Made by a program: the position numbers and the translations under genes. A stretch of DNA of 42,184 nt from Desulfobacterales bacterium. GTDB lineage: Bacteria > Desulfobacterota > Desulfobacteria > Desulfobacterales > JAHEIW01. Positions 2,417 through 29,805 of the stretch are shown piece after piece. The stretch covers positions 1-42,184 of the forward strand of contig JASFPE010000002.1 in assembly GCA_050116155.1 (NCBI GenBank), in the 5' to 3' direction. The notes below the pieces were generated by a model. It worked only from the letters and a program-made list of their open reading frames with translations, was not told where the DNA came from and made no database searches. Positions within the stretch are counted from its first letter, which is position 1; each line of letters begins with the position of its first letter.

Positions 2417-2417
2417 T

Positions 2418-4353: not shown

Positions 4354-4369
4354 TGGCACAGTCCATGCT
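4354..4369 (+). promoter_or_regulatory. Sigma54 (-24/-12) promoter for cluster A
   Basis: TGGCACagtccaTGCT has GG (4355-4356) and GC (4367-4368) separated by exactly 10 nt, one mismatch to TGGCAC-N5-TTGC. It faces the + strand operon and a sigma54 activator is encoded divergently. Confidence 0.7.
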
Positions 4370-5009: not shown

Positions 5010-5038
5010 GCACTATCGAAAGAGGGTGGTTTGGACCG

Positions 5039-7333
5039 ATGAATAACCGTTACAGTGTTGATACCCAACTGTATCGCGAGCTGGCAAAATTCGGTGCCAG
5101 GGATATGGAGATATGTATGCAATGCGGCACCTGCAGTGCATCGTGTCCTCTGTCCAGCGGAACGAATGCGTTTCCACGCAAGATATATTGCTATATTCAG
5201 CTGGGGCTGAAGGATAAATTGCTCAGATCGTCCGAGCCCTGGTTGTGTTACTACTGCGGCGACTGCAATACGGACTGTCCCCGGGGAGCTGAGCCAGCCG
5301 AGACGATGATGGCAACCCGCCGCTGGTTGACCGCTCAGTACGACTGGACTGGGCTTGCCAGACGGTTTTATCTCTCAGAGGCCTGGGAAATCGGAGCGTT
5401 GGTTGCCGTTGCCGTTGGAATCATTGCACTCTTTTGTTTTTTCCACGGGCCGGTGGTTACAGATCGTGTTTCCGTCAATTCCTTTGCACCGGTGATGTGG
5501 ATTGAAATCGGTGATTTGACCATGGCCGCCATTTTATCGACTTTCCTGCTGTCCAACGCATTTCGAATGTATCGCTTTATCATGAACGACATAAAGGTGC
5601 CGTATTGGCTCTATATTACAGAAGCCAAAGCCTTTGTCCTGAACTTCATCACCCAGAAACGCTGGCGGCAATGCGGGGAGGACCGCAGCCGCTGGCTGAA
5701 GCACTTTATCCTGGTCAGCGGTTACATGACCATGATGACGCTGGTCATTGTTTTCATCCGCTGGTTCCAGGTCGACGATAGCAGCTGGCATTTCACCAGC
5801 ATCTTCGGTTATTACGCCACCGGTGTCTTGCTCGCAATGACGGTGGAGATGTTCCGCAGCCGGCTTAAGAAAACGGAATCCATCCATCGCTTCTCAGAGT
5901 TTTCCGACTGGCTTTTTTTGATTCTGCTTTTCTTTACGACATTGACCGGTATAATGATGCATGCCTTGCGCATTGCCGGGTGGCCGATGGGAACCTATGT
6001 CATGTATGTCATCCATCTGGCAGTGGCCGTGCCGATGCTGATCATAGAGGTCCCTTTTGGGAAATGGTCCCATCTTTTCTACAGACCGCTGGCCATATTC
6101 TTAGCGAACGTCAGGCAGAAGGCATCCAAAGACTCCAAGGTCGACGTTGCGGATGTCATGACTAAGGTCGGTGAAACCTTTATGAGCTGCCTGCAATGCG
6201 GCACCTGCACGAGCGTATGCCCCTGGAATCAGATTTTTTCCTACAGCCCGCGCCGAATCCTGCGCCAGCTCGCATTGGATTCCGGCAGTGAGGAGTCTGT
6301 TGATCAGGCCGTCTGGCGTTGTGTCACCTGCAATGCGTGCGGCGTAAACTGTCCCCGCGGTATCGAAATCATCGACGTGATCAGAGCGGTGCGGGGGCTC
6401 AATGTCACTGAAGGCAGGATACCTGAGTTCCTGGCGGCAGCGCTTGATAGCCTGAAGGCCAACGGCAATCCCTGGGGGGGTGTTCGCGAGCAGCGGCTAA
6501 AATGGGCTGAAAAATTGAATCTGCGGATGTTTACATCTGAACACGAGTACTGCCTGTTCACCTGTTGCACAACCGCATATGATCCAAGTAACCGCAAAGC
6601 CGGCCGAGCGCTTCCCCAACTGATGGAATATGCAGGGGTATCTTTTGGTACCCTCGGTACCGAAGAGAATTGTTGCGGTGACCCGGCGCATCAGATAGGG
6701 GCGGGTGACATAGTTTCGGAGCTCATCCATAAAAATAGCGAGCTCTTTTTTCGAGCCGGTGTGCAGAAAATACTGACCTCGTCGCCCCATTGTCTGAATG
6801 CGTTTCGAAATAACTATGTCGATTTGAAGGGTTCTGTTACCAGTGAACATTACACGGAACTTCTCGACCGACTTGTTCGGCAGGGCCGGCTAAGTCCGGT
6901 TATAAAAGTGGCCGGCACGGTTACCTATCACGATCCCTGCTACCTGGGACGTCACAATGGCATCTACGAGGCGCCCCGCCGGATTCTGCAAAGCATTCCT
7001 GGACTGACGCTGATCGAAATGGCCAGCAATAGAGAAAGCAGCCTGTGCTGTGGGGGAGGTGGCGGCACTGCCTGGAGTGACACTCCCTGCAATCAGCGTC
7101 TGGGTGTACTGCGCATCGAAGAGGCTCTCGGCACCGGCGCCGAGGTGATTGCTACGGCCTGTCCCTATTGCATCCGCATGCTGACAGAGGCTGCAAGGGA
7201 ACTCGGTGTCGAAGATCAAATTGCCATCCAGGACGTGGCGGAATTGCTTTTGCAGTCGGTGATGATGAGGGATAAGGCCGATACGACGGAACACGTTGAT
7301 TTGGGAATTGAACGGGAGGTCTGCCATGTCTGA
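5039..7333 (+). CDS. Membrane-bound Fe-S oxidoreductase: 2x[4Fe-4S] ferredoxin + DsrM/NarI/HdrE-like membrane domain + DsrK/HdrD-like ferredoxin and CCG domains
   Basis: N-terminal CMQCGTCSASCP and CYYCGDCNTDCP. About six hydrophobic helices carry conserved His (MMHALRI, IHLAVAV, FGKWSHLFYRP). These are followed by CLQCGTCTSVCP and CVTCNACGVNCP, then CCG motifs (CCTTAYD, ENCCGDP, HDPCYLGRH, LCCGGGGG, ACPYC). ATG 5039 follows GAGGGTGG; an alternative TTG lies at 5006. Confidence 0.85.
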   Translation: MNNRYSVDTQLYRELAKFGARDMEICMQCGTCSASCPLSSGTNAFPRKIYCYIQLGLKDKLLRSSEPWLCYYCGDCNTDCPRGAEPAETMMATRRWLTAQYDWTGLARRFYLSEAWEIGALVAVAVGIIALFCFFHGPVVTDRVSVNSFAPVMWIEIGDLTMAAILSTFLLSNAFRMYRFIMNDIKVPYWLYITEAKAFVLNFITQKRWRQCGEDRSRWLKHFILVSGYMTMMTLVIVFIRWFQVDDSSWHFTSIFGYYATGVLLAMTVEMFRSRLKKTESIHRFSEFSDWLFLILLFFTTLTGIMMHALRIAGWPMGTYVMYVIHLAVAVPMLIIEVPFGKWSHLFYRPLAIFLANVRQKASKDSKVDVADVMTKVGETFMSCLQCGTCTSVCPWNQIFSYSPRRILRQLALDSGSEESVDQAVWRCVTCNACGVNCPRGIEIIDVIRAVRGLNVTEGRIPEFLAAALDSLKANGNPWGGVREQRLKWAEKLNLRMFTSEHEYCLFTCCTTAYDPSNRKAGRALPQLMEYAGVSFGTLGTEENCCGDPAHQIGAGDIVSELIHKNSELFFRAGVQKILTSSPHCLNAFRNNYVDLKGSVTSEHYTELLDRLVRQGRLSPVIKVAGTVTYHDPCYLGRHNGIYEAPRRILQSIPGLTLIEMASNRESSLCCGGGGGTAWSDTPCNQRLGVLRIEEALGTGAEVIATACPYCIRMLTEAARELGVEDQIAIQDVAELLLQSVMMRDKADTTEHVDLGIEREVCHV

Positions 7334-10300
7334 ACGAATCGGGTTTTATATCTGTCACTGCGGCATCAATATCGCTTACCGCGTCCGGGTGCAAGAAGTC
7401 GCCGAGTACGTGGCGACATTGCCGAACGTGGCCATTTCACGGGATTACCTGTTTATGTGCTCCGATCCCGGGCAAGAACTTATTGAAAATGATATTCGGG
7501 ACTACAAACTCACCCGCGTGGTGGTGGCCTCCTGTTCCCCGCGGATGCACGAAAAAACCTTTCGGGCCGCTTGCCAGCGGGCCGGTCTCAATCCATATCG
7601 AGCGTTCCATATGGTAAACGTGCGTGAGCATGTTTCGTGGGTTACTGAAAATGAAGATCTAGCTACCCACAAAGCCAAGATTCTGAGCGGTGCCGGTATT
7701 TTGCGGGTTGCCTATCAATATGATCTAACACCGGCCACGTTCCCTGTCTGCACCAACACCTTGATCGTGGGTGGAGGCATCGCCGGTATGCAGGCCGCCC
7801 TTGATATTGCCAAGGCCGGATACAGAGCGTACCTGGTAGAGAGACAGCCCACGGTTGGCGGGCACATGCTGCAGTACGACAAAACCTTTCCCACCCTGGA
7901 CTGTTCCGCCTGCATCGGCACGCCCAAGATGGTCTCCGTCGGTCAGGAAGCAAACATCGAGTTACTCTCATACAGCGAGGTGGAGGATGTCAGTGGCTTT
8001 ATCGGCAACTTCAAGATTAAAATCCGCCGCAAGTCCCGCTACGTCGAAAATAGTTGCACCGGCTGCGGCGAGTGCGAAAAGGTCTGCCCGCTTGATTTTC
8101 CTAATGAATGGGATGTTGCCACAAAAACCCGAAAAGCCATCTACCGACCCTTTCCCCAGGCCGTGCCCATCACTTATTGTATCGACAAGGACGATCGAGC
8201 GCCTTGTGTTCAGACTTGTCCGGCCGGGACCAATGTGCAGGGCTATGTAGCCCTCGTCAAATCGGGCAGGTATCGAGAAGCCGTCAATCTCATCATGGAG
8301 AAATTGCCCCTGCCGGGGACCCTTGGACGCGTCTGCCCGGCGCCATGTGAAAAAGAATGTCGCCGCGCCGAGGTGGACTCCGCCGTTGCCATCCGCGATC
8401 TGAAGCGGTTTGCGGCAGACCGCGTGGACCTTTCAGAGTTGCCTCTGCCCGAGATCGAAGACCGGCCGGAAAAGATAGCGGTTGTCGGTTCAGGCCCCGC
8501 CGGTCTTACGGTGGCCTATTACATGCGATTAAAAGGCTACCAGGTCACCATTTTCGAGGCGCTTGATCAACCGGGCGGTATGCTGCGGGTAGGGATCCCA
8601 GACTACCGTCTGCCACCTGATATACTGGACAATGAAATAAATTTTATTCTCAGACACGGAATTGAAATCAGAACCGGCGTTCGATTCGGATCGGACCTGT
8701 CCCTGGAAGGTCTGCGGCAAGACGGTTTTGCTGCCATATTTTTAGGAATCGGTGCCCATGATGCCATCCGGATGCACATTCCGGGAGAAGACCAGGTTGC
8801 AGGAGTCATCGATGCCCTTGCCTTTTTAAGAGACGTAAACCTGGGGAGAGGAGAGGTTCCCGGCAAGCAGGTCATTGTCATCGGCGGCGGAAATGTGGCC
8901 ATAGACGCCGCCCGTGTGGCAAAACGTCTGGGGGCCGAGAAGGTGACGGTGGTTTATCGCCGTTCGGAGCGGGAAATGCCGGCCTATCCTGAAGAATTAA
9001 TGGGCGCCAAGGAGGAAGGTATCGAATTTTCATATCTCACTGCTCCGGTAAGTATCCAGAGTCAGGACGGAAAGGTGACCGGCTTTGAATGCATTCGTAC
9101 CGAACTCGGCGCACCTGATGCCAGCGGGCGCAAGCGGCCGGTTCCGGTGAAGGGATCTGAATTCGTCATTGCGTGTGACGCGGTGATACCGGCCATCGGC
9201 CAAAAAGTCGATGTATCCTGGACCGCAGGAGCGACCGATCTGAAGCTGACTTCGAGAAACACCTTTACGGTGACGCCCCTCACTTTTCAAACCAGCGTAG
9301 CCGATGTATTTGCCGCCGGTGATGCCGTAACCGGACCAGCGACGGTCATCGAAGCCGTGGCGGCCGGCCACAAGGCGGTGGCGGCAATGCACCGTTTTAT
9401 CAGTGGTGAGGATCTGAATCAGTTTGCCGCAGAACTGGTTGCCGAGGAACCTCCAGGCACCGACTGGCGGGCAATTGGGAAAGAGATCCAAGATGCTCCC
9501 AGAGTGGTATCTTCCCATTTGGATCCCGCTCAACGGACTGCAAATTTTGATGAGATTGACCGGAATTTTTCCGAGGCGGCAGCCCAGAAGGAAGCTGCCC
9601 GCTGTGTGGATTGCGGTGGATGCTGCGAATGCAAGCTCTGCATGGGTGTCTGTGAAGCCAAAGCAATCAATCACGCCATGGGGGATAGGGTCGAAGAAAT
9701 CGATGTGGGTTCAATTATTGTCGCCACCGGTTTCGATCCCCTTGATCCGACGCCGATGCAGCAATACGGCTACGGAAAATACGCCAATGTCTTCACCAAT
9801 CTGGAGTTCGAGCGGCTTTCGAATGCAACCGGACCGACGGGCGGCAAGCTGCTTAAGCGGGATCCCAACGACCGCTTGAAATTCAGCGAACCACCGAAAA
9901 GCGTGGCGATCCTTCATTGCATCGGCAGCCGCGACATTAACTATCACGAGTATTGTTCGCGCACCTGCTGTATGTATGCGCTAAAGTATGCCCATCTTCT
10001 TAAGGACAAGTGTGGGCACGACACCGAAGTTTACAATTTCTACATCGACATGCGTTGCTTTGGCAAAGGCTATGAGGAGTTTTACAGGCGGGTCCAGAGC
10101 GAGGGCGTGCGCATGGTTCGCGGTAAGGCATCGCGGGTGGAAGAAGACGACGGTATCCTGACGGTCAGCGCCGAAGATACACTTTCGGACCGAATTGTGA
10201 AAGTTGCCGTTGAGATGGTGATCCTGTGCACCGCCATGGAGTCACGTGCGGATGCCAATGCTGTGTCACGTATTTTTGGGATCAGCATCGGAAGTGATGG

Positions 10301-10706
10301 TTTTTTTCAAGAGGAGCACCCTAAACTCGAGCCGGTGTCAACCCCGTCCAGCGGTGTTTTTCTGGCCGGAGCCTGCCAGGGACCCAAAGATATTCCCGAC
10401 ACAGTGGCGCAGGCCAAGGGAGCTGCGGCCGAGGCGCTGGCCCTTAGCGCCTCTGGAGAGGTCGCGGTGGACCCGATGATTTCATCCATCGACCCGGACA
10501 TATGTATCGGCTGCCAGGCATGTATCGGGCTGTGCGCCTACACGGCCATAGAGTTCAATGAGCTCAAAGGTGTTAGCGAAGTAAACGAAGCCGTGTGTAA
10601 GGGTTGCGGTAGTTGCTCCGCCCACTGTCCCAGCGGAGCTGCCAAGGTTCGGCACTTCACCGACAAGCAGGTTTTTGAGGAAATTGATGGTTTATTAGCC
10701 GGTTAG
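7326..10706 (+). CDS. hdrL: HdrL-type large HdrA-like flavoprotein (HdrA with inserted GltD/NfnB-like NAD(P)H module)
   Basis: HdrA N-domain is ICHCGINI...ASCSPRMHE, FAD site [11 protein letters not shown], then FPTLDCSAC. The central insert carries GRVCPAPCEKEC, VVGSGPAGLTVA and VIGGGNVAIDAA. The sequence then resumes HdrA (LEFERL, HCIGSRD, CSRTCCMYA) and ends with a C-terminal 2x CxxCxxCxxxCP. ATG 7326 follows GGGAGG and overlaps the upstream stop by 8 nt. Confidence 0.88.
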   Translation: MSERIGFYICHCGINIAYRVRVQEVAEYVATLPNVAISRDYLFMCSDPGQELIENDIRDYKLTRVVVASCSPRMHEKTFRAACQRAGLNPYRAFHMVNVREHVSWVTENEDLATHKAKILSGAGILRVAYQYDLTPATFPVCTNTLIVGGGIAGMQAALDIAKAGYRAYLVERQPTVGGHMLQYDKTFPTLDCSACIGTPKMVSVGQEANIELLSYSEVEDVSGFIGNFKIKIRRKSRYVENSCTGCGECEKVCPLDFPNEWDVATKTRKAIYRPFPQAVPITYCIDKDDRAPCVQTCPAGTNVQGYVALVKSGRYREAVNLIMEKLPLPGTLGRVCPAPCEKECRRAEVDSAVAIRDLKRFAADRVDLSELPLPEIEDRPEKIAVVGSGPAGLTVAYYMRLKGYQVTIFEALDQPGGMLRVGIPDYRLPPDILDNEINFILRHGIEIRTGVRFGSDLSLEGLRQDGFAAIFLGIGAHDAIRMHIPGEDQVAGVIDALAFLRDVNLGRGEVPGKQVIVIGGGNVAIDAARVAKRLGAEKVTVVYRRSEREMPAYPEELMGAKEEGIEFSYLTAPVSIQSQDGKVTGFECIRTELGAPDASGRKRPVPVKGSEFVIACDAVIPAIGQKVDVSWTAGATDLKLTSRNTFTVTPLTFQTSVADVFAAGDAVTGPATVIEAVAAGHKAVAAMHRFISGEDLNQFAAELVAEEPPGTDWRAIGKEIQDAPRVVSSHLDPAQRTANFDEIDRNFSEAAAQKEAARCVDCGGCCECKLCMGVCEAKAINHAMGDRVEEIDVGSIIVATGFDPLDPTPMQQYGYGKYANVFTNLEFERLSNATGPTGGKLLKRDPNDRLKFSEPPKSVAILHCIGSRDINYHEYCSRTCCMYALKYAHLLKDKCGHDTEVYNFYIDMRCFGKGYEEFYRRVQSEGVRMVRGKASRVEEDDGILTVSAEDTLSDRIVKVAVEMVILCTAMESRADANAVSRIFGISIGSDGFFQEEHPKLEPVSTPSSGVFLAGACQGPKDIPDTVAQAKGAAAEALALSASGEVAVDPMISSIDPDICIGCQACIGLCAYTAIEFNELKGVSEVNEAVCKGCGSCSAHCPSGAAKVRHFTDKQVFEEIDGLLAG

Positions 10707-10720
10707 AAAGGGGTTAGCAG

Positions 10721-11143
10721 ATGAGCGAGTTTGAACCGACAATTGTGGCATTTTTTTGCAACTGGTGTACGTATACGGCGGCAGATTTGGCGGGTACGTC
10801 GCGGCTGTCCTATCCTCCCAATGTAAAAAGCATTCGGGTGATGTGCACCGGGATGGTGGATCCCCAATATGTCATCAAAGCCTTTCTGGAAGGGGCTGAC
10901 GGGGTATTGATCAGCGGATGCCATCCGGGTGATTGTCATTATATCAACGGGAATTATAAGGCCCGTAGACGGATAAAGCTGCTCAAAGAGATTCTTCCGC
11001 AATTCGGTTTTGATCAACAACGGTTGCGATTAACCTGGATCGGTGCCAGCGACGGCATCCAGTTTGCCGAGGTCATGCGCGATTTGGTTGCCCAAATCAA
11101 AGCTTTGGGACCCAGCCAGGCCAGGTTGAAGATGGTGATCTAA
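10721..11143 (+). CDS. mvhD: MvhD-like (methyl-viologen-reducing hydrogenase delta subunit family) [2Fe-2S] protein
   Basis: IVAFFCNWCTYTAADLAG...IRVMCTGMVDP...GVLISGCHPGDCHY is the MvhD Cys pattern. An RBS (AAAGGGG) lies upstream. Confidence 0.9.
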   Translation: MSEFEPTIVAFFCNWCTYTAADLAGTSRLSYPPNVKSIRVMCTGMVDPQYVIKAFLEGADGVLISGCHPGDCHYINGNYKARRRIKLLKEILPQFGFDQQRLRLTWIGASDGIQFAEVMRDLVAQIKALGPSQARLKMVI

Positions 11144-11144
11144 T

Positions 11145-11228
11145 TTGAAACTTGATACTCGAAACTCGGATTTAACACTAAGTCAGAAAATTATATCAAC
11201 CTCCATTTTCAAATTTCCAGTTTCGAGT
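11145..11228. repeat. Intergenic short tandem / inverted repeats
   Basis: A degenerate heptamer array ACTTGAT ACTCGAA ACTCGGA lies at 11150-11170. ACTCGAAACT (11157-11166) is the reverse complement of AGTTTCGAGT (11219-11228). AATTTGAAA (11142-11150) pairs with TTTCAAATT (11208-11216). Confidence 0.4.
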
Positions 11229-11248
11229 TACAAAAAACGGAGGGGCTC

Positions 11249-12391
11249 ATGGCGATTACGGCGAAACTTGATGTAAAAGATAAAGACCTTTTAGGATCTT
11301 TGCGGGGCTTTTTTAAGAACCTCCTTGGAACTGGAGAAATCCAATCGCTGCTGGTCCCCCAGCATTTGCCGATGAAAGACATGATCATGCCGACGCTGGT
11401 GACGGACCCGAATCAGCTGAATGGGGTAGATCCTCTATCACCGGCCTTTCCGATGAACGCCGCCAAGATTGTTTCACGGCTCACCCGCAAACCCATGGGC
11501 GCGAAGGTTGCGGCCCTGTTGCGACCGTGCGAGATTAGGGCTTTTGTTGAACTCGTGAAACTGAAGCAGGGACGCACGGACGAAGTGATTTTGATTGGAA
11601 TGGACTGCCTGGGAGCCTTCCAAAACAAAGATTATTTTCAGCTGGTGGCGCAGAACGCCGCAGAATCGACGGTCGTGTTCTATGAAAGCGTGTTGCGCGG
11701 CAAAAACACGGAGATTGGCGGCCTTGATCTGGCGCCGGCCTGCAGGGCCTGTGAATATCCGGTGGCTGAAAATGCTGATATTCTCATCGGCCTATACGGT
11801 ATGGATATCAACCAATCACTACTGATTCAGACTCAAACTGAGGCTGGTGATCATATCCTAAAGCAGATGAATCTTTCCGCCACAGATGTGCCCCGCGCCC
11901 GCCAGGATGCCATTGATGCCTTAATAGCACAGCGCACAAAGTACAGGGATGACATGTTTGCTCGGACTCGCGAGGCTACCGAAAATTTGGAAAAATTATC
12001 CACCTATTTTGCCACCTGTGTCAACTGCTACAACTGTCGAGTGGCCTGTCCGGTCTGTTACTGTAAGGAGTGCGTTTTTGTCACCGATGTATTCAACCAT
12101 GATCCGTCTCAGTATTTGCGGTGGGCCAACCGCAAAGGGATCATTAAAATGCCGACGGACACGCTCTTCTACCATCTTACCCGATTGGCACATATGAGCA
12201 CGGCCTGTGTGGGCTGCGGCCAGTGCTCCAATGCCTGTCCGAATGATATTCCGGTCATGGAATTATTCCGTACGATCGCCCAAAGCACGCAGCAGGCGTT
12301 TGACTATGAGGCCGGGAGAAATGTCGATGAAAATCCTCCGCTGTCGGTTTTTCGAGAGGAAGAATTTGCCGAAGTTGTGGGGATAAACTGA
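11249..12391 (+). CDS. Fe-S protein: FrhB/FdhB-like N-terminal region + C-terminal 2x[4Fe-4S] ferredoxin domain
   Basis: LRPCEIRAFVELVKLKQ and IGMDCLG resemble the FrhB-family PCqi segment. The C-terminus has CVNCYNCRVACPVCYC and CVGCGQCSNACP. RBS is GGAGGGG. The FrhB assignment is by resemblance only. Confidence 0.6.
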   Translation: MAITAKLDVKDKDLLGSLRGFFKNLLGTGEIQSLLVPQHLPMKDMIMPTLVTDPNQLNGVDPLSPAFPMNAAKIVSRLTRKPMGAKVAALLRPCEIRAFVELVKLKQGRTDEVILIGMDCLGAFQNKDYFQLVAQNAAESTVVFYESVLRGKNTEIGGLDLAPACRACEYPVAENADILIGLYGMDINQSLLIQTQTEAGDHILKQMNLSATDVPRARQDAIDALIAQRTKYRDDMFARTREATENLEKLSTYFATCVNCYNCRVACPVCYCKECVFVTDVFNHDPSQYLRWANRKGIIKMPTDTLFYHLTRLAHMSTACVGCGQCSNACPNDIPVMELFRTIAQSTQQAFDYEAGRNVDENPPLSVFREEEFAEVVGIN

Positions 12392-12540
12392 TAAAAATTT
12401 AGGGTTTCGCCCCGATTGGAATAATGGAATAATGGGCATGAAGTGAAGCTTTAGCGCTATGGTGGAATGATGGTTTTAACGGATTTAAATCAAATAATTA
12501 TTCAAAATGACGAACCGCAAAACTGGCCAAGGAGGAACCT

Positions 12541-13848
12541 ATGTCTACAGATGTCATCAAACTAGGCGGTAAAAAGAAGAGCACCTTCATGGATAAGGTT
12601 ATGGAAATTCTGCCTGAAGGAGGAAATCTGAACCTTTGTCTAACTTGCGGCGCCTGCTCTTCGGGCTGTCCGGCTACTGGATTGGAAGGAATGGATCCGC
12701 GAAAATTTTTGCGCATGGCCGCACTGGGATTAGACGATGAAATTTTGAAATCGGACTGGGCCTGGATGTGCACCATGTGCCAGCGCTGCATCTATGTGTG
12801 TCCGATGAAAATCGATATCCCCCTGTTGGTTTACCATGCGCGTGCCAGTTGGCCGCGGGATGAGCGTCCCAAGGGCATACTGGGATCCTGCGATATGGCC
12901 TTGAGAAATGATAGCTGCAGTGCCATGGGTGCTTCTCCGGAGGATTTTACCTTCGTGGTGGAAGATGTGCTGGAAGAGTACCAGGAGGCCCAGCCTGAAT
13001 TTGCGGACATGCAGGCGCCCATCGATAAACAGGGTGCTGAATTTTTTTTAAACCAGAACTCCCGGGAGCCGGTGACAGAACCCGATGAAATGGTTCCGTT
13101 GTGGAAGATTTTGCATATTGTGGGGGCGGATTGGACTTATGGCAGCAAAGGCTGGGGCGGAGAAAATTATTGTATGTTTCTGGCCGACAGTGAGGCCTGG
13201 GAACATATTGTCCGAACCACCGCAAACCAAGCCGATGATCTGGGGTGTAAGATATTTCTCAATACCGAGTGAGGGCACGTGACTTTCTCAGTCCTGGCAG
13301 GACTGAAAAGATTCAACATTGCCCACAAATTCGAGGTCAAAAACATTTATGAGTACTATGCCAAATGGATACGGGAAGGCAAATTGAAGGTCAACTCGGA
13401 CTGGAACAAAGATTTGAAGATAAAGTTTACGGTTCAGGATCCGTGTCAAATCGTGCGTAAATCCTATGGTGATCCGATCGCCGAAGATCTTCGCTATGTG
13501 GTCAAGACGGTTGTGGGAGAGGAAAACTTTATCGAAATGCACCCCAACCGGTCCAACAATTATTGCTGTGGCGGCGGCGGCGGCTTTCTACAGTCCGGGT
13601 ATAAGGAGGCCCGTCTGGAATTCGGTCGCTTGAAAGACAGTCAAATTCAAACGACCGGAGCGGACTATTGCATTGCCGGTTGCCACAACTGCCATGCCCA
13701 GATTCATGAACTCAGCGAGCACTACGGCGGTGGTTATGGGGTGGTGCACCTGTGGACCGTCATTTGCCTGGCGTTGGGTATACTGGGTGAAAACGAACGG
13801 GAATATTTAAGGGAGGATCTTAAGGAAGTGGCCGTATATGGTGCCTAA
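12541..13848 (+). CDS. DsrK/HdrD-like (GlpC-type, CCG-domain) Fe-S oxidoreductase, selenocysteine-containing (in-frame UGA at 13270-13272)
   Basis: The ORF-track entries 12541..13272 and 13279..13848 are in the same frame, separated only by TGA GGG CAC. The joined product reads ...CKIFLNTE-U-GHVTFSV.... Together they make one complete protein: 2x CxxCxxCxxxCP (CLTCGACSSGCP, CTMCQRCIYVCP) plus CCG domains (QDPCQIV, NYCCGGGGG, GCHNCH). Neither half is a complete domain set alone. Confidence 0.8.
13289..13305 (+). promoter_or_regulatory. SECIS-like hairpin downstream of UGA 13270
   Basis: CAGTCC (13289-13294) TGGCA GGACTG (13300-13305), extendable with flanking U-A pairs. The stem starts 17 nt 3' of the UGA and the apical loop contains GG. 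Confidence 0.6.
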
Positions 13849-13898
13849 AATATAGCGGGTAATATCAGCTAACATTTGACCGGGCATTTGGGGGATTT

Positions 13899-16800
13899 AT
13901 GATAAGAAAAATTGGCAAAGCACTCGTCGTAGGGGCAGGTATTAGCGGTATTCGTGCGGCATTGGACTTAGCTGAATATGGTTATGGCGTCACGTTGATT
14001 GACCGGTCGCCCCATATCGGGGGCATACTCAGTCAACTCGATTATCAGTTTCCCACCGATCGTTGCGGCATGTGTAAAATGCTTCCCCTGGTCAATCGGG
14101 ATGCAGGCTCTCAATATTGCCTGCGCAAAGGTTTGTTTCACGAAAACATCGATATCCTTCTGTCCACGGACCTTGTCGCCGTTGAAGGCGAGGCCGGCCA
14201 ATTTCAGGTAACGCTCAAGCAGCATCCGAACTGGGTGGATTCGGATCGATGCACGGGATGCGGTGATTGCGTGGATGCCTGTCCGGTAGAGGTTCCGGAT
14301 GATTTTAATGCCGGTCTCAGCAAACACAAGGCCATCTATTTACCGGTTCCGCATGCCATTCCGAATCCATATGTGATTGATTTTGCGGCCTGTACCCGCT
14401 GTGGCGCTTGCGTTGAGGTCTGTCCTACCGGTGCGATTCGATTGCCTGAAGAGGAACGCAGAAAATTTCATATTCTCGTCGTCGACGACGAACTTGTCGT
14501 TCGCGATTCTCTTAAAGAATGGCTTAAAGAGGAAGGCTTTTCAATAGACATGGCCGCATCCGGCCCGGAGGCGCTGGATCAACTGACGAAACAAATGTAT
14601 CAATTGATGCTGCTGGATATTAAGATGCCCGGTATGGATGGGGTGGAGGTCCTTCAAAAAGCCAAGGAGAGTTTTCCGGATTTAAATGTGATCATGATGA
14701 CCGCTTATGCGACAGTCGAAACTGCCGTTGAAGCCATGAAGATCGGTGCTTTAGACTATCTGGTAAAGCCATTTAATCCCGAAGCTTTAGTGCCGATGGT
14801 CTTGCGAACATATCAGGATTTTACTGTGACCGAAGGACGACAGCTCGATGTTGGCGCACTGGTGCTTTGTGGCGGAACCCGCTTTTTTGACCCGACCAGC
14901 GGAAAAAACACCTTCGGCTATAAGATATATCCCAACGTTGTCACCAGCCTGGAATTTGAACGTATGTTAAGCGGTACTGGCCCCACGGCGGGACGCTTGG
15001 TGCGTCCTTTGGATGGAAAGCCGGTTCAACGAATTGCCTGGATCCAATGTGTGGGGTCTCGAGATTTACAAATGGAGGCCGACTTTTGCTCCAACATATG
15101 CTGCATGTATGCCATTAAGGAGGCGCTTGTGGCCAAAGAAAAGATTGATCCGGATCTGGAGGCCAGCATTTTTTATATGGATATGCGGACCTTCGACAAA
15201 TCATTTCAACGATATCGGGACCAAGCCGAAACGATTCATGGTATCCGCTTTGAAAGAGCGCGGGTTCACTCGGTGCTGCAAGATGCCAGCAGTGGTGATA
15301 TCATGGTCCGCAGCGTGGATATTTCAGGAAAACCCCGAGAATCGCCCTTTGACATGGTGATTCTCACCGTTGGCCAGCGGCCGGCCGAAGGCATCTCGGA
15401 GCTGGCCGAGATGTTAGGTATCGAACAAAATTCATGGGGATTCGGCCAAACCGAGGCCTTTTCCTTGACCCGCACCAATCAGAGTGGGGTTTTGTTGGGA
15501 GGTTCTTTTAGCGGCCTTAAAGACATTGGTGATTCGGTTATCCAGGCATCGGCAGCCGCCTTAAGCGCCTCGCGCGTGATCCACTCCGCCGGAGGAAGCC
15601 TGGCTTTAGAGCCATCGCCGGTCGTTCCCCCTGCCGATGTCATGCGGGAGATTCCGAAAATCCTTATCGTTGTTTGTACCTGTGGGGAGAGGCTGGCGCA
15701 GTGGGTCGATCCCCAAAAAGTCACTCGACAACTCACCAGCGATCCGGCGGTAAATCGAATAGAATTTTTAGAACAGGTCTGTACAGCCGCCGGCTGGGAG
15801 AACCTTGTGGAGCTGGTGAATACGAGTAAACCCAATCGTCTTCTGATTGGTGCCTGCCTTCCCTATGTCTATAAACGTAAACTGCGGGAGATTGGCCAAA
15901 AGGTGGGGTTGGATCCTACCCTCATGGAGGTGGTGGATCTGAATTCGGAATGGGGAATGGGGAAGGCGGAATTAAAGGATAAACACTTCATTTTTCGCAA
16001 TGTTATCTCTAAATTGGAAATGGATACGGCAAAACTGAAGAGGGTTAATCCGGAGCCTGTTCCCACAATTCCGATCATTCAAAAAGCGTTGGTTATCGGT
16101 GGCGGCATTGCCGGAATGACGGCGGCCCTGGCCATTGCCGATCATGGATTCGAGGTGGATTTAGTGGAACAGAGCGAACATCTGGGGGGAAATCTTACCT
16201 GGCTGCAACGAACCCTGGACGGGCATGACCCCAGAGCGTTGCTGGAGGAAACCAGGGCATCCGTAGAAAAGCATAACCAGATTCGTGTGCATGCACAATC
16301 CCATGTGATTCATGCTTTCGGCGAAGTCGGTAACTTTCATACGACCATTGAAGGACCCCAGAGCGCGGTGCACACACTGAATCATGGTGTCACCATTTTA
16401 GCTACCGGGGGGACAGAGGCGGATAGCGCATCCTATGGATATGGAACCAGCCCGGCCATTATCACCCAGAAAGAAATAGAACAAAAGCTATCAGATAATA
16501 CCGTAGATCCCGAGCAACTGAATTCGGTGGTCATGATTCAGTGTGTTGATTGCCGTGAGGAACCTCGCAATTATTGCAGCCGCGTTTGCTGTGCAAACGC
16601 CTTGAAACAGGCTCTTTATCTCAAGGAACACAATCCTGCAATCACGATTTATGTTCTTTACCGGGACCTGATGTCCTATGGGTTTAATGAAACCTATTAC
16701 ACTCGGGCCCGGCAAGCAAATGTGATGTTTATTCAGTATGGCATTGATGAAAAGCCCCAGGTTCAAGCCGCAGGAGAAGGATTAAAAGTGACGGTGGCCG

Positions 16801-17324
16801 AGCCGATCCTGGGGCAGCAGCTGCAAATTGAAGCTGATCTCGTGGTATTAGCCACCGGCATCGTTCCGAATCTCTCGCCAGAGTTAGTGGAAATGTTTGG
16901 TGCCGCCCTCGATCAGGACGGCTTTTTCCTGGAGGCTGAATCCAAGTGGCGTCCGGTTGACTCACTGAAAGAGGGCGTATTTGCCTGCGGCCTGGCCCTT
17001 TCCCCTCGCAACATTCCCGAATCGATTGCCACCGCTGAGGCCGCCGCGGCAAGAGCCTTGAGGATACTTTCCCGCGAACGCTTGCGGTCGGGAAAAGTAG
17101 TGGCCACGGTCCACCACAGCCTGTGCAGTCTGTGTGAAAGATGCATTGATGCGTGTCCATACGGTGCTCGCGCGCTGGATTTCGATCATGAAAAAGTACT
17201 GGTAAATCCGGTAAGGTGTCAGGGCTGCGGCTGCTGTGCGGCAGTCTGCCCCAACAGCGCATCCGTCTTGGAGGGTTTTCAGGAACAGCAAATGTTTGAG
17301 GTGATTGACGCGGCCATCGGATGA
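13899..17324 (+). CDS. Tandem HdrA-like flavoprotein with an inserted CheY-like receiver (REC) domain
   Basis: Module 1 has VVGAGISGIRAALD, FPTDRCGMC, CTGCGDCVDACP and CTRCGACVEVCP. Residues about 189-305 form a complete receiver (ILVVDDE, LMLLDIKMPGMDG, IMMTAY, YLVKPF). HdrA then resumes (LEFERM, QCVGSRD, CSNICCMYA). Module 2 has VIGGGIAGMTAA, QCVDCRE, CSRVCCANA and a C-terminal CSLCERCIDACP, CQGCGCCAAVCP. Confidence 0.9.
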   Translation: MIRKIGKALVVGAGISGIRAALDLAEYGYGVTLIDRSPHIGGILSQLDYQFPTDRCGMCKMLPLVNRDAGSQYCLRKGLFHENIDILLSTDLVAVEGEAGQFQVTLKQHPNWVDSDRCTGCGDCVDACPVEVPDDFNAGLSKHKAIYLPVPHAIPNPYVIDFAACTRCGACVEVCPTGAIRLPEEERRKFHILVVDDELVVRDSLKEWLKEEGFSIDMAASGPEALDQLTKQMYQLMLLDIKMPGMDGVEVLQKAKESFPDLNVIMMTAYATVETAVEAMKIGALDYLVKPFNPEALVPMVLRTYQDFTVTEGRQLDVGALVLCGGTRFFDPTSGKNTFGYKIYPNVVTSLEFERMLSGTGPTAGRLVRPLDGKPVQRIAWIQCVGSRDLQMEADFCSNICCMYAIKEALVAKEKIDPDLEASIFYMDMRTFDKSFQRYRDQAETIHGIRFERARVHSVLQDASSGDIMVRSVDISGKPRESPFDMVILTVGQRPAEGISELAEMLGIEQNSWGFGQTEAFSLTRTNQSGVLLGGSFSGLKDIGDSVIQASAAALSASRVIHSAGGSLALEPSPVVPPADVMREIPKILIVVCTCGERLAQWVDPQKVTRQLTSDPAVNRIEFLEQVCTAAGWENLVELVNTSKPNRLLIGACLPYVYKRKLREIGQKVGLDPTLMEVVDLNSEWGMGKAELKDKHFIFRNVISKLEMDTAKLKRVNPEPVPTIPIIQKALVIGGGIAGMTAALAIADHGFEVDLVEQSEHLGGNLTWLQRTLDGHDPRALLEETRASVEKHNQIRVHAQSHVIHAFGEVGNFHTTIEGPQSAVHTLNHGVTILATGGTEADSASYGYGTSPAIITQKEIEQKLSDNTVDPEQLNSVVMIQCVDCREEPRNYCSRVCCANALKQALYLKEHNPAITIYVLYRDLMSYGFNETYYTRARQANVMFIQYGIDEKPQVQAAGEGLKVTVAEPILGQQLQIEADLVVLATGIVPNLSPELVEMFGAALDQDGFFLEAESKWRPVDSLKEGVFACGLALSPRNIPESIATAEAAAARALRILSRERLRSGKVVATVHHSLCSLCERCIDACPYGARALDFDHEKVLVNPVRCQGCGCCAAVCPNSASVLEGFQEQQMFEVIDAAIG

Positions 17325-19630
17325 CGGTCTTTAGAATTGGAAAAATGTTCAAACTTATTAGAAATATTCGACGCAGGCTGGTTACCAAACTCATTATAAC
17401 TGTTGGCCTGACCCTGCTCATTACCATTTCAACCTGGGCCTACTTCAATATCAGTTATCAGGAAAAAAAGCTCATGGAGAATATTGTGGTGGGAACCGAT
17501 CGGTTAACCAATACCATCAAGCTCGGCGCTCATTATGCCATGATGCTGAATTCACGGGACGATATCAACCAGATCATCAATAACATCGGCAAGCAAAAAG
17601 AGATTGAAACCATCCGTATTTATAATAAAGAAGGCCAGATAAAATTTTCAAACCAACCATCAGAACTCGAAACAACCACCAATATAAAAGATGAAGCCTG
17701 CTATATCTGTCACCGGACGGACCCTCCCCAGTCTGAGCTCGGATTGACGGAACGCACACGGATATTTGCTTCGCCCCGGGGTTATCGTCTACTGGGGATC
17801 ATCAGCCCCATTTGTAACGAACCGGGTTGTTCGACAGATGCCTGTCATGTCCATCCTCAGGACAAAAAGATACTCGGCGCCCTGGATGTGGTCGTTTCTC
17901 TGGAAGATACGGATAAAGAAATCTTTATGGCTGAAAAAGGAGTCATTGGTTTAGCAGGAGGCATATTCCTGGTCACATCCGCAATTATCTTTCTTTTCCA
18001 ATTGAGGTTTGTCAATAAACCGATCCGCAAATTAATCGACGGAACTCGACGTATCGCAAAGGGCATGTATCCTAGCAGAGTAGATATTGACCAGGATGAT
18101 GAAATGGGACAGCTGGCGGCTGCTATCAACCAAATGAGTGAAAAGATTGCCGAGGACCAAGGGAAGTTGAACGAGCAAAGGGATGAGTATCAAACTCTGT
18201 TCGAACGGGTTCCCTGTCTGATTACCGTTCAGGATAGGAATTATAAGCTATTGCGTTATAATCGCGACTTCGCAAAAAGATTTGATCCTCAGCCCGGCGA
18301 ATATTGCTATGAAGCGTATAAAGGACGAGATGAGAAATGTGTAAACTGCCCGGTGGAGCGGACATTTAAAGATGGTCAAACTCATTATGGTGAAGAGACA
18401 GGCGTAAACAGAGATGGTACTCCGGTTCACTGGATTCTGCGAACATCTCCGATTAAAAATGCCAAGGGAGATATTGTGGCGGCCATAGAGATGAGCTTGG
18501 ATATAACGCATCGCAAACAGCTCGAAGATAAACTGGAAAAATCTGAAAAGAAGTACCATGAAATCTTCAACAATATTCCGAATCCGGTGTTTGTGTTAGA
18601 TAGCGACTCCCTCGAAATCATCGATTGCAATGAGAGCGTTCAAGCCGTCTATGGTTATTCCAAGGATGAGATTCTGAATAAGTCATTTATGGATTTGTTT
18701 TTGGAAGAAGAAAAAGATCAATATATTTCGAAAATTAAGTCATCCGCCATTTTGACCCGAGCTAAACATGTAAACCATGTGGGAATGCCTCTTTATGTAA
18801 ATATCAGGGTCTCGCCGGCCGAGTATCCGGGCAAAAAGGTGCTTCTGGTTACCACCAGCGATATTACCAAACGGCTTGAAGCCGAGCAGCAGCTGATCCA
18901 GGCCAGCAAAATGGCCACTTTAGGAGAGATGGCCACCGGCATTGCCCATGAACTCAACCAACCCCTTTCGGTCATTAAAACCGCAAGTAGCTTCTGTATA
19001 AAAAAATTAGATGTAAATGGTAAAATCGATAATGAACTCATGGCTACCATGATTGTTAAGGTGGACAGCAATGTGGATCGAGCTACCCGAATCATCAACC
19101 ATATGCGTGAATTTGCCCGCAAGCCCGATATTGGCCTGGGGAAGGTCCAGGTCAACGAAGTCCTGGAAAAAGCTTTTGAAATATTCAGCCAGCAGCTAAA
19201 GCTCAGGGGGATCGAAGTCGTATGGGACATTGAAAAAGAATTGCCCAAAATCAAAGCCGACCCCGGCCGATTGGAGCAGGTATTTATCAACCTTCTGTTA
19301 AATGCCAGAGATGCCATCGAAGAGCAATGGGGCCCCAGAGAAACCGCTAAGGCTGATAAACAAATTATTCTCAAAACAAGGCGCGAAGGCAAATCAATTT
19401 GGTGTGAAATCTGTGATACGGGGAAAGGTGTTCCGAAAGCAATGGCCGACAAGATCTTTGAACCTTTTTTCACCACCAAAGAAGTCGGCAAGGGAACCGG
19501 CCTGGGTCTTTCCATCAGCTATGGGATTGTGCAAGACTGTGGCGGAAGCATTCAGGTTGTCCCCCATCAACCTCACGGGGCCTGTTTTATCATAAAATTC
19601 CCCATACCGGAAAATAAAAATGGAAAATAA
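17321..19630 (+). CDS. Transmembrane sensor histidine kinase: extracytoplasmic domain with CXXCH motifs, HAMP, two PAS regions, HisKA/HATPase
   Basis: TM1 is LIITVGLTLLITISTWAYF. The sensor loop carries CYICH and CSTDACH. TM2 is GVIGLAGGIFLVTSAIIFLF and a HAMP domain follows. The PAS region carries CYEAYKGRDEKCVNCPV. H-box is IAHELNQP; HATPase boxes are LLLNARDA, DTGKGV and GTGLGLSI. The ATG overlaps the HdrA-REC stop (ATGA at 17321-17324). Confidence 0.92.
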   Translation: MTVFRIGKMFKLIRNIRRRLVTKLIITVGLTLLITISTWAYFNISYQEKKLMENIVVGTDRLTNTIKLGAHYAMMLNSRDDINQIINNIGKQKEIETIRIYNKEGQIKFSNQPSELETTTNIKDEACYICHRTDPPQSELGLTERTRIFASPRGYRLLGIISPICNEPGCSTDACHVHPQDKKILGALDVVVSLEDTDKEIFMAEKGVIGLAGGIFLVTSAIIFLFQLRFVNKPIRKLIDGTRRIAKGMYPSRVDIDQDDEMGQLAAAINQMSEKIAEDQGKLNEQRDEYQTLFERVPCLITVQDRNYKLLRYNRDFAKRFDPQPGEYCYEAYKGRDEKCVNCPVERTFKDGQTHYGEETGVNRDGTPVHWILRTSPIKNAKGDIVAAIEMSLDITHRKQLEDKLEKSEKKYHEIFNNIPNPVFVLDSDSLEIIDCNESVQAVYGYSKDEILNKSFMDLFLEEEKDQYISKIKSSAILTRAKHVNHVGMPLYVNIRVSPAEYPGKKVLLVTTSDITKRLEAEQQLIQASKMATLGEMATGIAHELNQPLSVIKTASSFCIKKLDVNGKIDNELMATMIVKVDSNVDRATRIINHMREFARKPDIGLGKVQVNEVLEKAFEIFSQQLKLRGIEVVWDIEKELPKIKADPGRLEQVFINLLLNARDAIEEQWGPRETAKADKQIILKTRREGKSIWCEICDTGKGVPKAMADKIFEPFFTTKEVGKGTGLGLSISYGIVQDCGGSIQVVPHQPHGACFIIKFPIPENKNGK

Positions 19631-20777
19631 AATACTACTTGTTGATGACGAAAAAGATGTCCGTGACGTGCTTAACCTGTCTCTTACGGATTTGGGATAT
19701 GATGTGTTTGAAGCGGAAAATGGCGATGAAGCATTGCACATTTTTAAAAAAGCCAATCCTTCCATCGTACTTACCGATATAAAAATGCCGGGCATGGATG
19801 GTATTGAACTTCTTCAGAGAGTTAAACACGAAAATCCTGACGCCGAAGTCATCATGATTACTGGGCACGGCGCGATGGACCTGGCTATCATGAGCCTTAA
19901 GTATCAAGCTGCTGATTTCATCACCAAACCGATCAATGTTGATGTGCTGGAGGTTGCTCTGAAAAAAGTGCGTGACAAGATTATAATGAAACAAAAATTA
20001 AAGGAGTATACCGAAAATCTTGAAAGACTTGTGCGAGAAAAAACAGAACTCCAAAGTCACCTGTCTTCATTAGGATTAATGATTGGTTCCATATCGCATG
20101 GAATAAAGGGTCTGTTAACCGGTTTAGATGGGGGGATGTATTTGCTGGATTCCGGTTTTGCAAAAGACAATCAGGAGCGGATCAAGGAGGGCTGGGAAGT
20201 TGTGAAATTGATGGTGGATCGTATCCGCAAAATGATCGATGATATCCTATTTTATGCCAAAGAAAGAGATTTGAAATGGGAACGGGTCAATGTTCTGAAT
20301 TTTGCCACTGGGGTGGCAACCGGCATTGAAACAAAAATGAAAGAACAAGATATTGAGTTCATAAAAGATTTCGACACAAGGGCTGCAAAATTTGAAGTTG
20401 ATGCAGGCTATGTCCATTCTGCTTTGATCAATATTCTGGAAAATGCCGTGGACGCCTGTATCAGAGACAATACAAAAAAATCTCATAAAATTGTCTTCAG
20501 CATCAGGCAGGATAAAAAAAATATAACATTTGATGTGTTTGACAACGGCATTGGTATGGACCGCGAGACTATTGACAAACTATTTACACCTTTTTTTTCT
20601 TCAAAGGGTGAAAAAGGAACCGGGTTGGGTCTCTTTATTTCCAACAAAATCATTGAGCAGCACGGCGGCAATATCAAGGTCAAATCGACTGAAGGCGAAG
20701 GAACCCTTTTCAGTATAAAAATTCCAAAAATACTGCCGAAATCCGTCAGGGTCACCAAAGATAAAGCGGCAGTTTAA
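19620..20777 (+). CDS. Hybrid protein: N-terminal receiver (REC) + histidine kinase core
   Basis: Receiver motifs ILLVDDEKD, IVLTDIKMPGMDG, MITGHG and FITKP. H-box-like SISHGIKGLLTGL. HATPase boxes ILENAVDA, DNGIGM and GTGLGLFI. It overlaps the upstream kinase gene by 11 nt. Confidence 0.9.
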   Translation: MENKILLVDDEKDVRDVLNLSLTDLGYDVFEAENGDEALHIFKKANPSIVLTDIKMPGMDGIELLQRVKHENPDAEVIMITGHGAMDLAIMSLKYQAADFITKPINVDVLEVALKKVRDKIIMKQKLKEYTENLERLVREKTELQSHLSSLGLMIGSISHGIKGLLTGLDGGMYLLDSGFAKDNQERIKEGWEVVKLMVDRIRKMIDDILFYAKERDLKWERVNVLNFATGVATGIETKMKEQDIEFIKDFDTRAAKFEVDAGYVHSALINILENAVDACIRDNTKKSHKIVFSIRQDKKNITFDVFDNGIGMDRETIDKLFTPFFSSKGEKGTGLGLFISNKIIEQHGGNIKVKSTEGEGTLFSIKIPKILPKSVRVTKDKAAV

Positions 20778-28402: not shown

Positions 28403-28403
28403 G

Positions 28404-29492: not shown

Positions 29493-29805
29493 AATCAAAT
29501 TCAATCAAAAGATATTCGCAGCAGGTTGGGCGTTGTGGTTTTGGTGGTCACTATAACGAAAGGGACATAAATAATCAATTCTATTTGAGTTGCCGCTAAA
29601 GTTATTAGGGTTAAACGGTAGCCATCCGCGATGACCCAAAGGGAGTCTTTCGGAATCGGAGCATTACGATATGGTTTTTAGGGCCGACATGGGGCGGTGA
29701 GATGGCACGCAAAACCCAGTCTGGTAAAAAGATCTTGAATTCTATTAAAGTGTGTTTTAGATATCATTAGTTATCCAATACGAACCATGAAAGGGTAAAG
29801 ATTAA

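Follow-up and report, generated by a model that had tools for sequence, protein, structure and literature searches.

HdrA-type flavin-based electron bifurcation is central to the energy conservation of anaerobes, and its control has been discussed, both to our knowledge and in the literature that was searched, only in terms of gene expression and substrate availability. In the HdrABC-MvhAGD complex of methanogens (5ODC and related entries), HdrA consists of an FAD-binding thioredoxin-reductase-like core with a ferredoxin-like insert and a CVGSRD-type motif, flanked by N-terminal and C-terminal Fe-S domains, all of which recur in the protein described below. The inserted ferredoxin domain of HdrA has been proposed as the low-potential route to free ferredoxin (PMC9012536), and fused or tandem 'heterodimeric' HdrA proteins have been described from ANME archaea and from MetFV-HdrABC of Moorella (PMC9012536). 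For Desulfobacterium autotrophicum HRM2, an hdr locus (locus VIII) is drawn with hdrL, mvhD, fdhB, hdrA4, and hdrCB, and the legend of Fig. 4 in the same paper names three kinds of signalling genes for the hdr loci (response regulator, histidine kinase, and CheY-like regulator), without discussion of these genes (PMC2702500). Here, we describe an hdr operon in a 42,184-nucleotide stretch of DNA from a Desulfobacterales bacterium (contig JASFPE010000002.1, positions 1 to 42,184; hereafter the window), in which a two-component receiver is built into the HdrA chain (hereafter designated HdrA-REC) and the genes for a sensor kinase (HK769) and a receiver-kinase hybrid (RHK385) follow downstream. 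From gene context and residue conservation, we suggest that the segment 17321-20777 is the signalling tail of a sigma-54-dependent operon and that its kinase cascade acts on the HdrA receiver, a proposal whose chances we consider evenly poised. The features on which it depends are as follows.

4354-20777, + strand: predicted sigma-54-dependent hdr operon, from the promoter element through the signalling tail
4569..5009, + strand: stand-alone receiver REC146, which opens the operon (Pfam Response_reg, 1.6e-17)
13899..17324, + strand: HdrA-REC (Pfam HdrA-like FAD/Fe-S and Response_reg)
14466..14828, + strand: receiver inside HdrA-REC, residues 190-310 (Pfam Response_reg at residues 192-300, E 8e-32)
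17321..19630, + strand: sensor kinase HK769, 769 residues (Pfam; likely true start ATG 17345)
17699..17854, + strand: putative haem-c motifs in the periplasmic domain of HK769, C127-Y-I-C-H131 and C170-x4-C175-H176 (plus H178)
19620..20777, + strand: receiver-kinase hybrid RHK385, 385 residues (Pfam)

Domains of the window proteins were assigned with Pfam. The last three reading frames of the operon (13899..17324, 17321..19630, and 19620..20777) carry, by both the list of open reading frames (ORFs) and Pfam, the domains claimed for them in a preliminary description of this DNA, and Pfam likewise agrees with its count of three receivers and two kinase cores in this operon, there called cluster A.

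Receiver domain embedded in a tandem HdrA

In a phmmer search against the PDB, which was used for matches to solved structures, HdrA-REC matched chain A of 5ODC (E 1e-137) in four collinear pieces.

HdrA-REC 7-185 on 5ODC 145-313: start of the FAD domain and ferredoxin-like insert
HdrA-REC 315-509 on 5ODC 318-511: rest of the FAD domain
HdrA-REC 584-815 on 5ODC 2-232: N-terminal domain and start of the FAD domain, second module
HdrA-REC 967-1137 on 5ODC 474-647: end of the FAD domain and C-terminal ferredoxin domain

By this alignment, HdrA-REC is a single-chain tandem HdrA, composed of module 1 (residues 7-509), which is without the N-terminal domain, and module 2 (residues 584-1137), which has this domain and no Cys aligned at the position of Cys197. 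In the fused or tandem HdrA proteins of ANME archaea and Moorella, too, one half has lost the N-terminal domain and the other Cys197 (PMC9012536). Unlike in the description of ANME HdrA3/4 in that work, the halves are reversed in HdrA-REC, and the inserted domain is a two-component receiver and no redox module. HdrA-REC also differs from 5ODC HdrA in having two modules in one chain and in the receiver insertion itself (residues 186-314, about 125 residues), which falls between the equivalents of 5ODC residues 313 and 318, immediately after the ferredoxin-like insert; no receiver was present in a solved HdrA among the phmmer PDB matches. The receiver is a clean insertion, because an HdrA paralogue without a receiver, encoded in a second hdr-type operon of the window (cluster B), joins the two flanking segments directly. 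In the HdrL-type protein of the operon (7296-10706), a GltD/NfnB-like NAD(P)H module (residues about 300-690) is located either inside the ferredoxin-like insert of HdrA or behind it; the HdrL module and the receiver occupy the same region of HdrA, which therefore seems to be particularly prone to domain insertions. Participation of HdrA-REC in bifurcation within an HdrBC complex is putative, as judged from the gene context, that is, the hdrB/hdrC-like genes, mvhD, and hdrL of the operon.

Relatives of HdrA-REC were collected in a scan with one genome per species, which gave at least 596 matches; 80 loci (L numbers) with 52–84% identity were retained from Desulfobacterales, Desulfatiglandales, and Syntrophobacterales, including Desulfobacterium sp. 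N47, Desulfospira joergensenii, and Olavius symbionts. Across 77 orthologues, the most distant with 52% identity, conservation reaches at least 95% at each site residue of the receiver, namely the phospho-acceptor D240 (14616-14618), D196 and D197, T268, and K290. In the same orthologues, residues 266-281 (alpha4-beta5, MMTAYATVETAVEAMK) are near-invariant and are among the best-conserved stretches of the entire protein. An AlphaFold2 model of HdrA-REC (mean pLDDT 68.9), used for the receiver fold alone, shows five strand-helix units over residues 191-309 in a (beta-alpha)5 arrangement, with block-mean pLDDT values mostly of 60–87. In view of its residues, the HdrA receiver looks phosphorylatable. 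The HdrA-REC family comprises at least 120 clusters at 90% identity, of which the best 120 (66–100% identical to the query) all carry PF00072, and the fusion is widespread among sulfate reducers and syntrophs, with hundreds of species represented; the database names of these proteins are already 'response regulator' or 'heterodisulfide reductase subunit A'.

Kinase genes and their place in the hdr operon

Between the stand-alone receiver and HdrA-REC, the operon encodes six redox proteins, all assigned by Pfam.

5006..7333, + strand: HdrD-like Fer4 and CCG protein
7296..10706, + strand: HdrL-type HdrA/GltD fusion
10721..11143, + strand: MvhD
11249..12391, + strand: FrhB-like protein
12541..13272, + strand: HdrC-like protein
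13279..13848, + strand: HdrB-like protein

Gene order in the relatives was compared ORF by ORF. The order of these redox genes (5006..13848) is kept, and the conserved order of the whole runs from the stand-alone receiver through (HdrD-like), HdrL, MvhD, FrhB-like, (HdrC, HdrB), HdrA-REC, and (HdrC, HdrB) to HK769 and RHK385, an operon type conserved across Desulfobacterales, Syntrophobacterales, and relatives. In the preliminary description, the unbroken series of HdrA-REC, kinase, and hybrid was taken as a mark of cognate partners. Among the 59 loci with at least 5.5 kb of sequence past HdrA-REC, in which the kinase was sought within 10 kb, an HK769 orthologue lies downstream of HdrA-REC in 48, on the same strand in 43, but directly adjoins it in 11 only. 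Adjacency is rare because a bona fide hdrC (Fer4_17) and hdrB (two CCG domains) normally intervene. Thus, the expected order was retained as shared operon membership and not as strict adjacency, and the link is therefore one at the operon level with no conserved junction. When the comparison was confined to the 37 loci that extend 9 kb or more to either side of HdrA-REC, HK769 was found in 32 of them and RHK385 in 28, with 3 further loci carrying variants of RHK385; overall, the HK769/RHK385 pair shares a cluster with HdrA-REC in about 80–85% of relatives. A reverse search of metagenomes with an HK769 profile, which made use of generic kinase peptides and returned true orthologues at about 15 of 80 loci, placed the close orthologues directly after HdrA-REC or after hdrC/hdrB.

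A different arrangement was seen in L001 (CP070746.1), the closest genome match among those listed (84% identity), where HdrA-REC is followed by hdrC/hdrB-like genes only, and hdrL, mvhD, and kinases are absent within 10 kb of HdrA-REC. From this locus, some genomes may hold a second, stripped-down copy of HdrA-REC.

At the HdrA-REC/HK769 junction, the window reads GGATGA (17319-17324), so that ATG 17321 overlaps the HdrA-REC stop TGA (17322-17324). The overlap from which translational coupling had been proposed is therefore literally present, but relatives start the kinase at the equivalent of Met-9 (17345). Residues 1-8 of HK769 (MTVFRIGK) are unconserved, Met-9 is at least 90% conserved in orthologues, and several orthologue matches from the metagenome search begin at residue 9. 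In the closest relatives sharing the gene order of the window, the junction consists of TAA, a 20-nucleotide spacer, and an ATG aligned at the DNA level to 17345 (L002), of a 114-nucleotide spacer (L005), or of GGATGAAAAATG (L060), where the ATG of an ATGA-type overlap is out of frame with the kinase. The true start of HK769 is likely ATG 17345, 20 nucleotides past the HdrA-REC stop, and the in-frame ATGA is probably an accident of the conserved Gly(GGA)-stop(TGA) ending of HdrA-REC. With its conserved start 20 nucleotides downstream and its rare adjacency, HK769 does not show the conserved overlap with HdrA-REC that is expected of a translationally coupled gene pair.

Presumably, then, the HdrA/HK769 overlap would reflect a lineage-specific loss of the hdrC-hdrB pair and no conserved coupling device. 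We hold it to be fairly likely that the junction is uninformative, being a by-product of this deletion with an in-frame ATG 17321 that arose by chance from the GGA-TGA ending, as the standard order of HdrA-REC, hdrC, hdrB, and HK769, the differing junctions of L002, L005, and L060, and the variable residues before Met-9 all suggest. On the other side, termination-reinitiation coupling could still operate across a 20-nucleotide spacer, and no terminator-like site was seen between HdrA-REC and HK769 in the terminator scan. In that scan and in a sigma-70 promoter scan, both over 13000-22000, the counts were near those of shuffled sequence. Four of the nine same-strand junctions of the window operon overlap as listed in the ORF list, so that an overlap by itself is unremarkable here.

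The notion that gene coupling marks cognate partners fares better at the second junction, where ATG 19620 of RHK385 gives an 11-nucleotide overlap with the HK769 stop TAA (19628-19630). The overlap is present as described (19620-19630) and recurs in relatives: RHK385 adjoins HK769 in 33 of the 43 same-strand loci, with frequent overlaps (about 29, 26, 11, and 8 nucleotides) or else short gaps. HK769 and RHK385 thus constitute a conserved, often overlapping gene pair with the arrangement expected of translational coupling, and homologous pairs of about 40% identity are also found away from hdr clusters.

HK769 consists of a transmembrane segment, a putative haem-c-type periplasmic domain, a second transmembrane segment, HAMP, a Cys-bearing PAS, a further PAS, HisKA (H543), and HATPase_c (Pfam HisKA 1.6e-9, HATPase_c 2.8e-20). 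Its H543 lies within HELNQPLSVIKT, a stretch that is near-invariant in about 50 orthologues, as expected of a HisKA-type kinase, and the DHp alpha1 helix, HELNQPLSVIKTASSF, is near-invariant as well. The extracytoplasmic CXXCH noted previously is found as CYICH (residues 127-131) flanked by two hydrophobic segments. In 40 orthologues, conservation is 95% or higher at C127, C130, H131, C170, C175, H176, and H178; the second Cys/His motif alternates between Cx3CH and Cx4CH. PF21563 was matched by the periplasmic domain in 14 of 14 members (best E 2.9e-7), whereas the score of the window copy, 26.5 bits, is below the cut-off of 27. Searched as a profile, the domain matched PDB 3B42 and 3B47 weakly (E 0.07–0.25), with their CxxCH aligned to the second motif. 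These matches suggest that the domain is of the type of the haem-c PAS-like sensors of Geobacter, with putative haem attachment, and the extra CxxCH (127-131) suggests a second haem. On the cytoplasmic side, PAS1 has conserved C329, C340, and C343.

RHK385 is composed of a receiver (D53), a coiled linker, DHp (H160, SHGIKGLLTGLDGG), and HATPase_c, and its own receiver is its only sensor. Response_reg and HATPase_c (6e-25) were detected by Pfam and HisKA weakly (E 0.0018, below the cut-off), and D53 and H160 are conserved in orthologues in keeping with a HisKA-type kinase.

The third receiver of the operon, REC146 (site residues D14, D15, D58, S88, and K119), precedes the hdrL/hdrD-like genes in 36 relatives, and a REC146-type gene directly follows RHK385 in 5 relatives. 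The phospho-acceptor Asp is retained in all three operon receivers of the window. Among 39 REC146 orthologues, however, 10 (L014, L028, L029, L037, L039, L044, L045, L048, L050, and L063) have Asn, Ala, or Glu in place of D58, so that REC146, unlike the HdrA receiver, seems in some lineages to be degenerating into a pseudo-receiver. The idea that loss of this Asp tracks loss of RHK385 was rejected, as most of the Asp-less REC146 loci retain RHK385.

Proposed phosphotransfer, transcriptional control, and alternatives

In the proposed cascade, HK769 would sense the periplasmic redox or ligand state via covalently bound haem, would probably also read a cytoplasmic signal via its Cys-bearing PAS, and would autophosphorylate at H543, from which the phosphoryl group would pass to D53 of RHK385. 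As RHK385 has only its own receiver as a sensor, this phosphorylation would set the activity of its kinase core (H160). The end receivers would be REC146 (D58) and the HdrA receiver (D240), neither of which has a DNA-binding domain; the phosphorylated HdrA receiver would reposition or occlude the adjacent ferredoxin-like insert, the proposed exit of low-potential electrons, and the electron flow in the Hdr complex would thereby be tuned after translation. Transcription of the operon would be under separate control by a kinase and a regulator, HK522 and NtrC482, at a sigma-54 promoter. The step from HK769 to the RHK385 receiver appears to be the best-supported one, and the candidate kinases for HdrA-D240 are HK769 or RHK385 by gene context, as against the HK522 class by residue signatures. 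The features of transcriptional control are as follows.

1079..2527, - strand: NtrC482, receiver - sigma-54 AAA+ - HTH_8 (Pfam Sigma54_activat 1e-68, Response_reg 2e-31, HTH_8 7e-15)
2418..3986, - strand: HK522, cytoplasmic PAS-HisKA-HATPase_c kinase directly upstream of NtrC482 (Pfam; H-box VHEINNPIQGLLTF)
4149..4256, + strand: ATGTTGC repeats, three direct and one inverted, inferred candidate activator-binding sites
4354..4369, + strand: sigma-54-type -24/-12 element, TGGCACAGTCCATGCT, about 200 nucleotides before the first operon gene

Of 33 relatives, 27 have a similar element ahead of their orthologue of the first gene, as compared with about 1.3 expected by a rough estimate, and the pattern showed no enrichment across the window as a whole. 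The ATGTTGC repeats are situated 100–200 nucleotides upstream of the element. Because the element recurs in relatives and an AAA+ activator is adjacent, transcription of the window operon most likely depends on sigma-54, with a DNA-binding regulator as part of the system. The earlier statement that the signalling genes have no DNA-binding output therefore holds for the + strand operon and not for the neighbourhood, where the divergent NtrC482 (1079..2527) and the sigma-54 promoter are found. In two relatives (L027 and L032), the neighbouring activator is PAS - AAA+ - HTH without a receiver by Pfam, and a third kinase, REC-PAS-HisKA-HATPase, stands alongside; in most other relatives, the N-terminus of the adjacent activator has no receiver-type DD motif. 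The activator of L027 and L032 could not be a phosphorylation target because it has no receiver, yet HK769 and RHK385 are kept. Where activators are receiver-less, the kinases therefore meet only non-DNA-binding receivers in the cluster, which supports, for these relatives, the earlier suggestion that such receivers are the kinase targets.

Some further observations concern this upstream region. The real start of NtrC482 is probably Met-34, at about 2428, which would overlap the HK522 stop by about 11 nucleotides (2418-2428), as at the HK769/RHK385 junction. The N-terminus of HK522 (residues 1-110) reads like a Rossmann-type dinucleotide-binding fold (NIAIVGGGRACKF...), and Pfam reported no domain there. 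The PAS of HK522 (residues about 180-210) and PAS1 of HK769 share the Cys motif CYxA[YF]xGxDxxC...CP, which may be a metal or redox site. The leader of about 190 nucleotides from the promoter to the first start codon (4380-4568) contains GC-rich self-complementary stretches, e.g., CGCCCGCATAGCGGGTGG.

Kinase and receiver wiring was compared by alpha1 and DHp signatures, which serve as a lead only, and by identities within the window. Cluster B (20774-29504, - strand), the other hdr-type operon, likewise begins with signalling genes, after which Fer4 and CCG proteins, HdrA, and FrhB are encoded. These signalling genes and the identities are as follows.

28404..29504, - strand: HK366, PAS kinase of cluster B
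27782..28252, - strand: REC156, stand-alone receiver of cluster B
Kinase cores of RHK385 and HK366: 36% identity, HK366 being the closest to RHK385 in the window
Kinase cores of HK769 and HK522: 32% identity, grouping in the window
Receivers of HdrA-REC and NtrC482: 49% identity
Receivers of HdrA-REC and RHK385: 43% identity
Receivers of REC146 and REC156: 29% identity, REC156 being the closest to REC146

The cluster B kinase core and receiver are thus the closest paralogues of RHK385 and REC146 within the window; an SHGIK-type H-box is common to RHK385 and HK366, and an insert before beta5 is found in both REC146 and REC156. Transfer from RHK385 to REC146 is favoured because the paralogous HK366 and REC156 are neighbours in cluster B and a REC146-type gene can follow RHK385 directly.

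Separate observations were made on the remainder of cluster B. Its HdrA (21935-24988, - strand) is listed as an ORF of 914 residues, and the frame continues upstream past an in-frame TGA (24809-24811) located at the position of Cys59 of HdrA-REC and Cys197 of M. wolfeii HdrA; the protein is probably a selenocysteine HdrA of about 1017 residues with no receiver domain. RHK385 (+ strand) and the FrhB-like gene of cluster B (- strand) converge at 20774-20777 on the palindrome TTTAAA with overlapping stop codons, and the terminator scan showed no terminator-like site between the two operons in this region. In L030, an FrhB orthologue follows the REC-kinase gene on the same strand.

Several points weigh against a cascade that runs from HK769 through RHK385 to the HdrA receiver. 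HdrA-REC occurs without HK769 within 10 kb in 11 of 59 loci, and HK769/RHK385-type pairs of about 40% identity are also found without HdrA-REC. The direct HdrA/HK769 adjacency, as stated above, is limited to 11 of 59 loci, and the start in the overlap differs from the conserved one. Some HK769 orthologues (about 500 residues; e.g., L009 and L019) are without the periplasmic domain. Transfer from RHK385 to REC146 is not a universal route, because D58 is lost in about one-quarter of the orthologues that still have RHK385. The structural effect of HdrA receiver phosphorylation is speculation, the mean pLDDT of the model being 68.9. Finally, receiver alpha1 positions usually determine partner choice, and the alpha1 signature of the HdrA receiver matches the NtrC482 type and not the RHK385 receiver. 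The signatures are as follows.

HdrA receiver: DDELIVRDSLKEWL
NtrC482 orthologues: DDELIVRESLxxWL
RHK385 receiver: DDExDIRDVLxLxL
Receiver of the upstream REC-PAS kinase: DDEEDIRDVMxLxL

The RHK385 receiver, in turn, resembles that of the upstream REC-PAS kinase, and the DDExDIRxV shared by the two is consistent with one common upstream kinase.

An alternative is that control is branched, in which HK522, or in relatives the REC-PAS kinase (H-box HEINNPLSGILNY), phosphorylates the HdrA receiver and the same kinase class serves the NtrC-type regulator. A single signal would then induce the operon via sigma-54 and switch the finished enzyme, while the HK769/RHK385 branch would end at REC146 or at other REC-kinase hybrids. 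We regard both parts of this alternative as possible but rather unlikely. The higher identity of the HdrA receiver to the NtrC482 receiver (49%) than to the RHK385 receiver (43%) speaks for it, as does alpha1, which reads L-I/V-V-R-D-S-L-K-E-W-L in HdrA and similarly L-I-V-R-E-S-L-x-x-W-L in NtrC482, the x-D-I-R-D-V-L-x-L-x-L of RHK385 being different. Moreover, HK522 has a DHp helix similar to those of the upstream REC-PAS kinases and different from that of HK769; a REC-Usp protein of L017, whose receiver is 68% identical to that of HdrA, adjoins a kinase with an HK522-like H-box; and the HK769-less loci L016, L017, and L018 have this kinase class directly after hdrB. However, receiver likeness may stem from ancestry and not from current wiring, and among the 37 loci with full flanks, HK769 is encoded within 10 kb of HdrA-REC in 32, the REC-PAS kinase in 22, and an NtrC482 orthologue in only 5. 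The DHp alpha1 of HK769, which hardly varies, is also a better fit to the alpha1 of the HdrA receiver, likewise near-invariant, than to that of the RHK385 receiver, which is variable.

A more specific form of the proposed HK769/RHK385 cascade, in which the HdrA receiver is a phospho-gate on the exit of low-potential electrons and the input is a dihaem sensor of the redox state of the periplasmic cytochrome pool, is doubtful in our estimation; if true, the gate would represent direct post-translational two-component control of electron bifurcation. Finally, that HK769 and RHK385 form an ordinary transcriptional system acting via NtrC482 or an unlinked DNA-binding regulator, with the HdrA receiver as a non-signalling structural or dimerisation module, is improbable, since, although an NtrC-type regulator and a sigma-54 promoter adjoin the operon, gene overlaps are frequent in operons and have little functional meaning, and receivers do degenerate here (REC146 Asp lost in 10 of 39 orthologues), the five site residues of the HdrA receiver are, unlike those of REC146, conserved to at least 95% in 77 orthologues, and the activator of L027 and L032 has a PAS in place of the receiver, with no DD motif in most others.

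Relation to known systems

The nearest drawn locus, locus VIII of D. autotrophicum HRM2 (PMC2702500), has the same kinds of genes as the window when likened by gene names, and the text of that paper, as searched, has no mention of a receiver inside HdrA and leaves the signalling genes undiscussed. In the searched literature, an HdrA receiver fusion or signalling control of an Hdr complex is not described, and a receiver is not among the 501 HdrA architectures of a 2024 survey. For the sensor, the periplasmic domain of HK769 covers nearly the whole of the PF21563 profile to which Geobacter sulfurreducens GSU0582 and GSU0935 (PDB 3B47 and 3B42) belong; unlike in these chemoreceptors, the putative sensor domain is placed on a histidine kinase, its aligned motif is Cx3-4CH, and a further CxxCH is present at residues 127-131.

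All parts of the system are therefore of known kinds, namely HdrA and fused HdrA, haem-c PAS-like sensors, REC-kinase hybrids, and sigma-54 activators. What is new relative to the searched literature is the receiver built into HdrA, and the argument from gene overlap is an ordinary one and partly mistaken. Multi-kinase phosphorelays and response regulators with enzymatic output are known, e.g., Myxococcus RedCDEF, CheB, and PleD. The system of the window likewise combines a receiver-controlled kinase, stand-alone receivers, and a receiver that would govern an enzyme and not DNA binding; unlike in those systems, the putative output is a flavin/Fe-S subunit of the bifurcation type, and the receiver lies in the middle of the chain. 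An intact, conserved receiver in a catalytic flavoprotein beside dedicated kinases offers a testable case of signal-dependent enzyme switching, and would place a redox enzyme among the few outputs of response regulators.

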